IMG/VR virus record: IMGVR_UViG_2565956710_000003 | Span: 1-46,613 of that record | DNA: 46,613 nucleotides | DNA from: a virus | Lineage: Duplodnaviria > Heunggongvirae > Uroviricota > Caudoviricetes | Strand: one strand, 5' to 3' | Shown here: positions 7,920-8,624 of the stretch, one piece after another | Layout of the letters: every line of letters starts with the position of its first letter | Numbering within the stretch: position 1 is the stretch's first letter | Notes under the pieces: model-generated | Seen by the model: only the letters and a program-made list of their open reading frames with translations | Told to the model about the DNA's origin: nothing | Database searches by the model: none | Position numbers and translations under genes: made by a program

Positions 7920-8129
7920 AAAGAAGATTTCCAATAATCAGAACAAGTCGGCTCCTGTTTAGTTACGAGCGACATTGCTCCGTGTATTCACTCGTTGGAA
8001 TGAATACACAGTGCAGTGTTTATTAGTATGCCTGTCTTTTAACCACATCAGGCTCGGTGGTTCTCGTGTACCCCTACAGCGAGAAAAATAGTAAAATCCT
8101 CTTACCCCTACAGTAAGAGAGTGATTTAT

Positions 8130-8624
8130 ATGTCTGATGAAAAAGGAATAATAAGTAGGATTACAGATGCAGTTTCTGGTGCCGGAGGTGCTCTGATGAG
8201 TGCTGTTGGCGCAGTAAAGGAAATCCAGAAAATGCAAATAGACTACTCAGTAAAAGAAAAAACATACGAACTTGTCGATAAGCTCATGGATGCCCAACAG
8301 CAGCAAATGTCACTTAATGAGCTTTTGATGATTTCTAAGGACAAGATCATTGAGCTTGAAGAAAAGATAAATCGAGCCTCTAAGTGGGAAGAGGAAAAGA
8401 AAAACTATGAGATGTATACACCTACTGTTGCTACGGTGGTTTATCGTCTCAAAAAATCGGCAAATACCGGTCAGCCAATGCACTATCTTTGCGCTCAATG
8501 CTATGAATCTTCTGTGAAATCCATACTTCAATACGAAGGATTTGCACCACCTTCTAACCATAGGATGAGATGCCATAGGTGTAACGCCTCCTATCTGTTC
8601 CCTAAATCTGCATTTTCTAAATAA
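8130..8624 (+). CDS. Opposite-strand accessory gene: coiled-coil protein with C-terminal four-Cys zinc ribbon
   Basis: 164-aa ORF on the strand opposite to the pL operon, visibly AT-rich; C-terminus has CAQC...CHRC; 3' end overlaps the N stop codon by 8 nt. Confidence 0.6.

Follow-up and report, generated by a model that had tools for sequence, protein, structure and literature searches.

SieB of phages lambda and P22 and Rip1 of phage HK446 are both expressed from prophages and protect against other phages. In lambda, sieB (34482-35036, + strand) runs opposite to the pL operon and lies directly against N, at 35037. The HK446 protein, whose name stands for 'ring interacting pore 1', is known from a cryo-EM structure released in Feb 2026 (PDB 9OOX), in which 12 Rip1 chains are assembled with 11 chains of small terminase of the T4 type. 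In the passage on Rip1 of the October 2025 phage conference report (PMC12908700), incoming phages are blocked by this prophage protein, which caps the ring of the small terminase (TerS); a membrane pore is only 'suggested'. A passage of a 2026 preprint on Avs2 and Upx (bioRxiv 10.64898/2026.04.30.721860) counts Rip1 among the small-terminase-sensing systems. What is said below on the pore step and on the phenotype follows the title of the PDB entry, the conference summary and a one-line citation. In Rip1, one small protein acts as an immune sensor for a conserved component of phage packaging, which it recognises as an oligomeric ring.

Two other systems are directed at the same machinery. TerI, from a Listeria prophage, targets the small terminase subunit as Rip1 does, but it is proposed to disable TerS and has dedicated antidotes. 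Avs1-3 also detect a terminase component of phage DNA packaging; unlike Rip1, they are large STAND NTPases and sense the large subunit. We saw no sequence relation of Rip1 to TerI or Avs, and no PADLOC match linked them.

Identity and position of the gene

The window (the whole stretch of DNA analysed, 46,613 nt) carries on its + strand an ORF of 164 aa plus stop at 8130-8624, with ATG at 8130 and TAA at 8622-8624. The ORF list thus bore out the first-pass annotation, which had placed a gene here on the strand opposite to the pL operon. A GTG at 8121 is an alternative start that would lengthen the product by three residues; the start of the 164-aa form is the one used in the annotation of HK446 and also in the PDB chain. 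The antiterminator gene N lies on the - strand at 8617-8940 (ORF list; 96.6% DNA identity to lambda N). The two genes converge and share 8 nt (8617-8624), in agreement with the overlap with the N stop codon noted earlier.

The first-pass annotation had proposed a profile and structure search of the protein, and this search identified it. The product is identical at 163 of 164 residues to HK446 Rip1 in PDB 9OOX (sequence search, E 1.4e-105), and it matches PHROG 1244, a family without assigned function, at E 4e-53. Over the gene and its flanking DNA, HK446, ev099 and vB_EcoP-720R6 have 98.9-99.8% identity to the window. Searches of Pfam, NCBIfam and PADLOC with the product gave chance-level matches only; the best match in PADLOC-DB v2 (2023), PDC-M53B, covered 50 residues at E 0.019, a value compatible with chance. 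Rfam yielded nothing credible within 7000-12000. The gene is real: it is conserved, it matches PHROG 1244 and the structure of its product has been solved.

We conclude that the gene is very probably rip1, a single-gene anti-phage defence of the prophage. The earlier proposal of a stand-alone exclusion or defence gene in the interval between N and cIII is borne out by the near-identity to HK446 Rip1, but the novelty that it implied is not, because Rip1 has already been named and structurally solved. The outcome is a gain in annotation and a testable idea on how the prophage avoids killing itself, and it leaves the field unchanged. What is added here is the size of the family, its spread to phages of Pseudomonas, Proteus and Rhodobacter, and the lone-gene antisense contexts of its members.

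The window and HK446 share the length of Rip1, its convergent overlap with N and the upstream module described below. The phages themselves differ: HK446 is an HK97-like siphovirus with another repressor, whereas the window has P22/Sf6-like packaging and head genes and a lambda-type cI. The sole difference between the two proteins is at residue 96, Tyr in the window and His in HK446, which falls at the start of the putative sensor (C-terminal) domain. The window Y96 allele would presumably behave like the HK446 H96 allele, though the substitution in this domain counts against taking the two as equal.

The partner of Rip1 in the solved complex is a terminase of another type than those resident in the two phages. 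Chain A of 9OOX ('Small terminase protein', 11 copies) matches T4 gp16 at E 4e-106. Lambda Nu1, HK97 gp1 and the Sf6-type TerS of the window were also considered as the partner, and none of them is present in the entry. The gp16 query, which we take to be the T4 protein, gave a near-perfect match.

The claim that the gene is visibly more AT-rich than its neighbours stands in part. The rip1 ORF has 39.8% GC (GC3 37%), N has 49.1% and the window as a whole 47.2%; among 495-bp windows the ORF lies at the 5th percentile. The genes to its left, however, have 44% GC. The AT-richness is real, but the effect is only moderate in size.

The sieB slot and the region upstream of rip1

The window was aligned to lambda, HK620 and HK446. 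The equivalent of the lambda cIII-ea10 spacer is found at 7853-7891 and includes tL2B as annotated in HK620. The lambda ea10-ral spacer (33920-34055) corresponds to 7891-8024 (98% identical), the 86 bp directly upstream of lambda sieB (34396-34481) to 8029-8114 (87% identical) and lambda N to 8617-8969 (96.6% identical). Compared with lambda, the window is missing ea10, ral and orf28, and the body of sieB is replaced with both of its flanks kept. Two intrinsic terminators of the pL operon on the - strand, tL2B (7881-7862) and tL2A (7919-7902), were located by the terminator scan and the HK620 annotation (AF335538); tL2B falls within 7853-7891 and tL2A (7902-7919) within the 7891-8024 block.

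The first-pass annotation had presented the orientation opposite to pL as a contrast with lambda. This contrast disappears in the alignment, where lambda sieB occupies the same slot on the same strand and in the same position next to N. Because lambda sieB likewise runs opposite to pL and abuts N, rip1 is a cassette swap in the sieB slot and not a new arrangement.

A second occupant of the slot is HkaP of HK620, present also in HK629 and HK630. It has the same length as Rip1 (164 aa), the same succession of helix, coiled coil and four-Cys domain, and the same slot and strand; the 230 bp upstream of its gene are about 98% identical to the window. The proteins, in contrast, are only 27% identical (E 3e-13), HkaP does not have the 11-residue N-terminal extension of Rip1, and the Pro-rich tail is longer in HkaP. 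HkaP is a genuine but distant homologue of Rip1.

In HK620, hkaP is annotated as a 'putative superinfection exclusion protein'. This label, along with the slot, strand, position next to N and 86-bp upstream module that rip1 shares with sieB of lambda and P22, could be taken to mean that Rip1 is a functional equivalent of SieB, that is, a constitutive membrane protein aborting superinfection by lambdoid or P22-like phages with no link to terminase. We regard such a role as very unlikely, given that the solved complex contains a small terminase ring. The proteins are also dissimilar. A BLASTP comparison with the SieB family had a best E of 9.4, and neither the NCBIfam nor the Pfam SieB model was matched, so that homology to SieB was rejected. 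Lambda SieB has TM-like hydrophobic segments (residues 50-78; maximum 19-residue Kyte-Doolittle mean 1.73), whereas Rip1 has none (maximum 1.28).

P22 sieB differs further in having an antisense RNA, sas, and an antidote, Esc, neither of which has a demonstrated counterpart at rip1. An Esc-like internal start at Met35 of Rip1, with AAGGA 10 nt upstream, was considered and set aside as doubtful because it is kept only in the close clade.

The shared region upstream of rip1 (8029-8114, + strand) is a conserved sieB-type module, 87% identical to lambda and about 98% identical to the region upstream of HK620 hkaP, and may represent a promoter with a 5' leader. It holds the two direct copies of TACCCCTACAG (exact matches at 8069-8079 and 8103-8113, + strand, 34 bp apart) reported by the first-pass annotation, as well as AACCAC and GTGGTT. 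TACCCCTACAG occurs exactly twice in the window, where 0.01 occurrences are expected by chance, and none of 100 shuffled sequences contained two copies. Lambda retains both copies, as GTACCCCTACAG and AACCCCTACAG, and so does HK620. Thus the repeats are present as described but are not specific to rip1, because they lie within a module common to the upstream regions of lambda sieB and HK620 hkaP.

Three potential hairpins were evaluated in this region. The 9-bp inverted repeat GTGTATTCA/TGAATACAC proved to be the core of a larger structure at 7971-8020 (both strands), with arms of 22 nt (7972-7993 and 7998-8019) that are 82% complementary. Its folding energy is -24.4 kcal/mol for the + strand and -24.9 kcal/mol for the - strand (z -4.5 and -5.8 versus shuffles). 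It is situated within the block that corresponds to lambda 33920-34055 with 98% conservation, and HK620 conserves it as well. On the pL transcript this hairpin would be a long duplex, possibly an element of RNA processing or stability. AACCAC (8041-8046) and GTGGTT (8057-8062), proposed to form a second hairpin, are indeed present, and the sequence is conserved in lambda, but their predicted stability (z -1.1) is like that of shuffles and we rejected the pair as a structural element.

The third hairpin, CTCTTAC-N7-GTAAGAG (8098-8120), includes the second copy of TACCCCTACAG and is terminator-like on both strands; its folding energy is -8.6 kcal/mol for the + strand (z -2.2) and -10.5 kcal/mol for the - strand (z -2.0). 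A T-rich run comes next on the - strand, and on the + strand the hairpin directly precedes the SD-like GAGAG (8117-8121). Read in the direction of pL, it comes right after the stretch antisense to rip1. The terminator scan found no other terminator-like site between N and tL2A, and the hairpin may be the equivalent of tL1 for pL transcripts. It is present in HK620, whose annotators put tL1 inside hkaP, and absent in lambda.

We found no good sigma-70 promoter upstream of rip1; the sole match on the + strand (8125-8152, 9 of 12 positions) overlaps the start codon. An independent promoter upstream of the gene is plausible from the sequence, and rip1 would be expressed from the conserved sieB-type module.

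Domain architecture and proposed mode of action

The AlphaFold model of Rip1 (built on an alignment of 34 sequences; mean pLDDT 73) is consistent with the coiled-coil centre and C-terminal four-Cys zinc ribbon that the first-pass annotation had read from the translation. The centre is a long helix or coiled coil (aa 39-90; 8244-8399, + strand) modelled with pLDDT up to about 87. The C-terminal domain (aa 93-158; 8406-8603, + strand) has a confident AF2 fold, a beta-rich zinc ribbon with Cys at 121, 124, 148 and 151 (CAQC...CHRC), encoded on the + strand at 8490-8492, 8499-8501, 8571-8573 and 8580-8582. All four Cys are invariant in 34 homologues. Across 52 diverse members of the family Y93, C121, C124 and C151 are invariant, and C148, Y105, L133, Q134, L48 and L76 are kept in at least 90%; motifs with Tyr, Lys, Leu and Gln are, like the Cys, conserved family-wide.

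The N-terminal segment (aa 5-34; 8142-8231, + strand) is rich in Gly, Ala and Ser and is amphipathic; the model has an N-terminal helix here (residues 1-37), with a confidence below 50. It is the most hydrophobic part of Rip1, with a 19-residue Kyte-Doolittle mean of at most 1.28 and an 18-residue hydrophobic moment of up to about 0.4. No 19-residue mean in Rip1 reaches 1.6, and thus the protein has no classical TM segment. A helix of this kind, amphipathic and made of small residues, is found family-wide with the pattern AxxxxKxAxxxxKxI (alignment of 52 sequences). In 9OOX, 124 of the 164 residues of the Rip1 chain are modelled and about 40 N-terminal residues are absent; the modelled part presumably comprises the helix and the C-terminal domain. 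The name of the protein and the conference summary suggest that the N-terminal segment is the membrane-inserting, pore-forming part, and the zinc-ribbon domain would then be the sensor that binds the ring.

The following course of events can be proposed. In a lysogen, where the pL operon is repressed, Rip1 would be made from the other strand. On infection by a T4-type phage TerS would be made, and its ring would template a ring of Rip1, presumably contacted through the coiled coil and the C-terminal zinc-ribbon domain. The 12 clustered N-terminal Gly/Ala-rich amphipathic segments would insert in the inner membrane and form a pore, halting the infection late, in the manner of abortive infection. 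The block would fall at the packaging stage since TerS is a late protein.

Another way to read the complex, in which Rip1 caps the TerS ring, is that TerS is simply sequestered or inhibited and packaging is blocked with no membrane pore, as proposed for TerI. The mild hydrophobicity of the N-terminal segment would suit such an inhibitor, and the passage in PMC12908700 offers the pore only as 'suggested'. We judge this reading improbable. The name chosen by the depositors is 'ring interacting pore', the amphipathic AxxxxKxAxxxxKxI helix is conserved across the family, and the roughly 40 N-terminal residues left unmodelled fit a mobile effector segment. We retain pore formation upon recognition of the TerS ring as the proposed mechanism.

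Sensing of TerS would have to spare the resident prophage. The small terminase of the window (24321-24746) is of the Sf6 type and that of HK446 of the HK022/HK97 type, and neither has sequence similarity to T4 gp16. Since the resident TerS is unlike T4 gp16, self-tolerance is explicable by the resident protein going unrecognised.

Family contexts and possible self-immunity

Word-indexed searches returned only about 60 enterobacterial relatives of Rip1. The family is much larger than these enterobacterial examples. An exhaustive profile search produced 3,507 cluster representatives (50% identity) at E <= 0.001, with 2,064 of them at E <= 1e-10; one of 10 distant representatives is from Xenorhabdus, and the other nine are on metagenomic contigs. 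With tblastn against sequenced phages the family was detected in 56 records, 31 of which are Pseudomonas phages, D3112 (orf25), DMS3, JBD30 and MP38 among them. ORF25 of LPB1 had an hhalign probability of 99.5.

The lambdoid members use the regulatory slot of sieB. Of 5,426 complete E. coli genomes, 96 have the rip1 allele, 66 the hkaP allele of HK620 and 169 the sieB gene of lambda. All the rip1 and hkaP copies among the matches listed for complete E. coli genomes in RefSeq are annotated as 'hypothetical protein', and recognising rip1 gives a function to the gene behind this label.

Each of the five phage contexts examined has the Rip1-family gene on its own, antisense to the lytic operon around it. 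These contexts are the lambdoid phages of E. coli (the window, HK446 and HK620), prophages of Proteus mirabilis, the E. coli myovirus vB_EcoM-689R2, Casadabanvirus phages of Pseudomonas and the Mu-like Rhodobacter phage RcWaterboi. Lone antisense placement is typical of morons expressed in lysogens.

In Casadabanvirus the opposite-strand Rip1-family ORF lies directly between a DUF1804 gene and the gene for the large terminase. This was seen in LPB1 (1968-2474 of the stretch examined) and for D3112 orf25, DMS3, JBD30 and MP38. DUF1804 is Mu gp27-like and presumably related to small terminase; if so, a homologue of a small-terminase sensor sits inside a terminase gene pair.

The diversity of contexts bears on the possibility that rip1 has no role in defence and that its product instead binds nucleic acid through the zinc ribbon and regulates the early-left region, modulating for instance N, cIII or recombination genes, or that the gene is an antisense or transcriptional-interference device against N. 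Zinc ribbons often bind nucleic acid, the product has a weak match to Zn_ribbon_4 (E 0.087), and rip1 does converge on N with the 8-nt overlap. On the other hand, homologues occur in unrelated operons that have no N (between DUF1804 and TerL in Casadabanvirus and in the Mu-like early operon of RcWaterboi), neither Pfam nor NCBIfam revealed an HTH or other DNA-binding family in the product, and the partner in the solved structure is a protein ring. We give a regulatory role hardly any credence and keep to the assignment of rip1 as a defence gene.

The antisense placement may also be a part of self-protection. As rip1 is read against pL, N-antiterminated transcription after induction would cross the gene. 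Comparison of the sequences thus suggests two mutually compatible routes by which the prophage might protect itself, a non-cognate resident TerS (Sf6 type) and antisense transcription from pL.

A broader and more tentative idea, which we consider rather unlikely to hold as a whole, is that the sieB slot is a conserved 'socket'. It would combine the 86-bp module with its pair of TACCCCTACAG copies, the convergent overlap with N, interchangeable defences (sieB, hkaP and rip1) and an antisense placement that provides self-immunity. N-antiterminated transcription from pL would then shut off the synthesis of Rip1 on induction, in a way resembling the action of the pL-derived sas RNA on P22 sieB. 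The idea fits the antisense position of Rip1-family genes in five of five contexts. We found no published account of it in the literature covered, outside which the primary Rip1 publication falls.

The prophage is a mosaic elsewhere too. Its cI, cro and N are of the lambda type, and its early-left region is of the Erf/Abc2 type, as in HK97 and HK446. The packaging module (24321-26155) is of the Sf6/P22 type, with a small terminase that matches PDB 4DYC at E 2e-82 and a Terminase_3 large subunit. The cI gene (10645-11358, - strand) appears to be lambda cI with Ser for Thr at residue 2 (MSAKKK... versus MSTKKK...).

Where lambda has rexA and rexB, between pL/N and cI, the window carries a single gene of about 330 aa (9464-10456, - strand). 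Its product contains a P63C domain (PF10546, E 7e-23) and has no PADLOC match. This slot is another known position for morons, and the gene is a candidate for an accessory or defence function.
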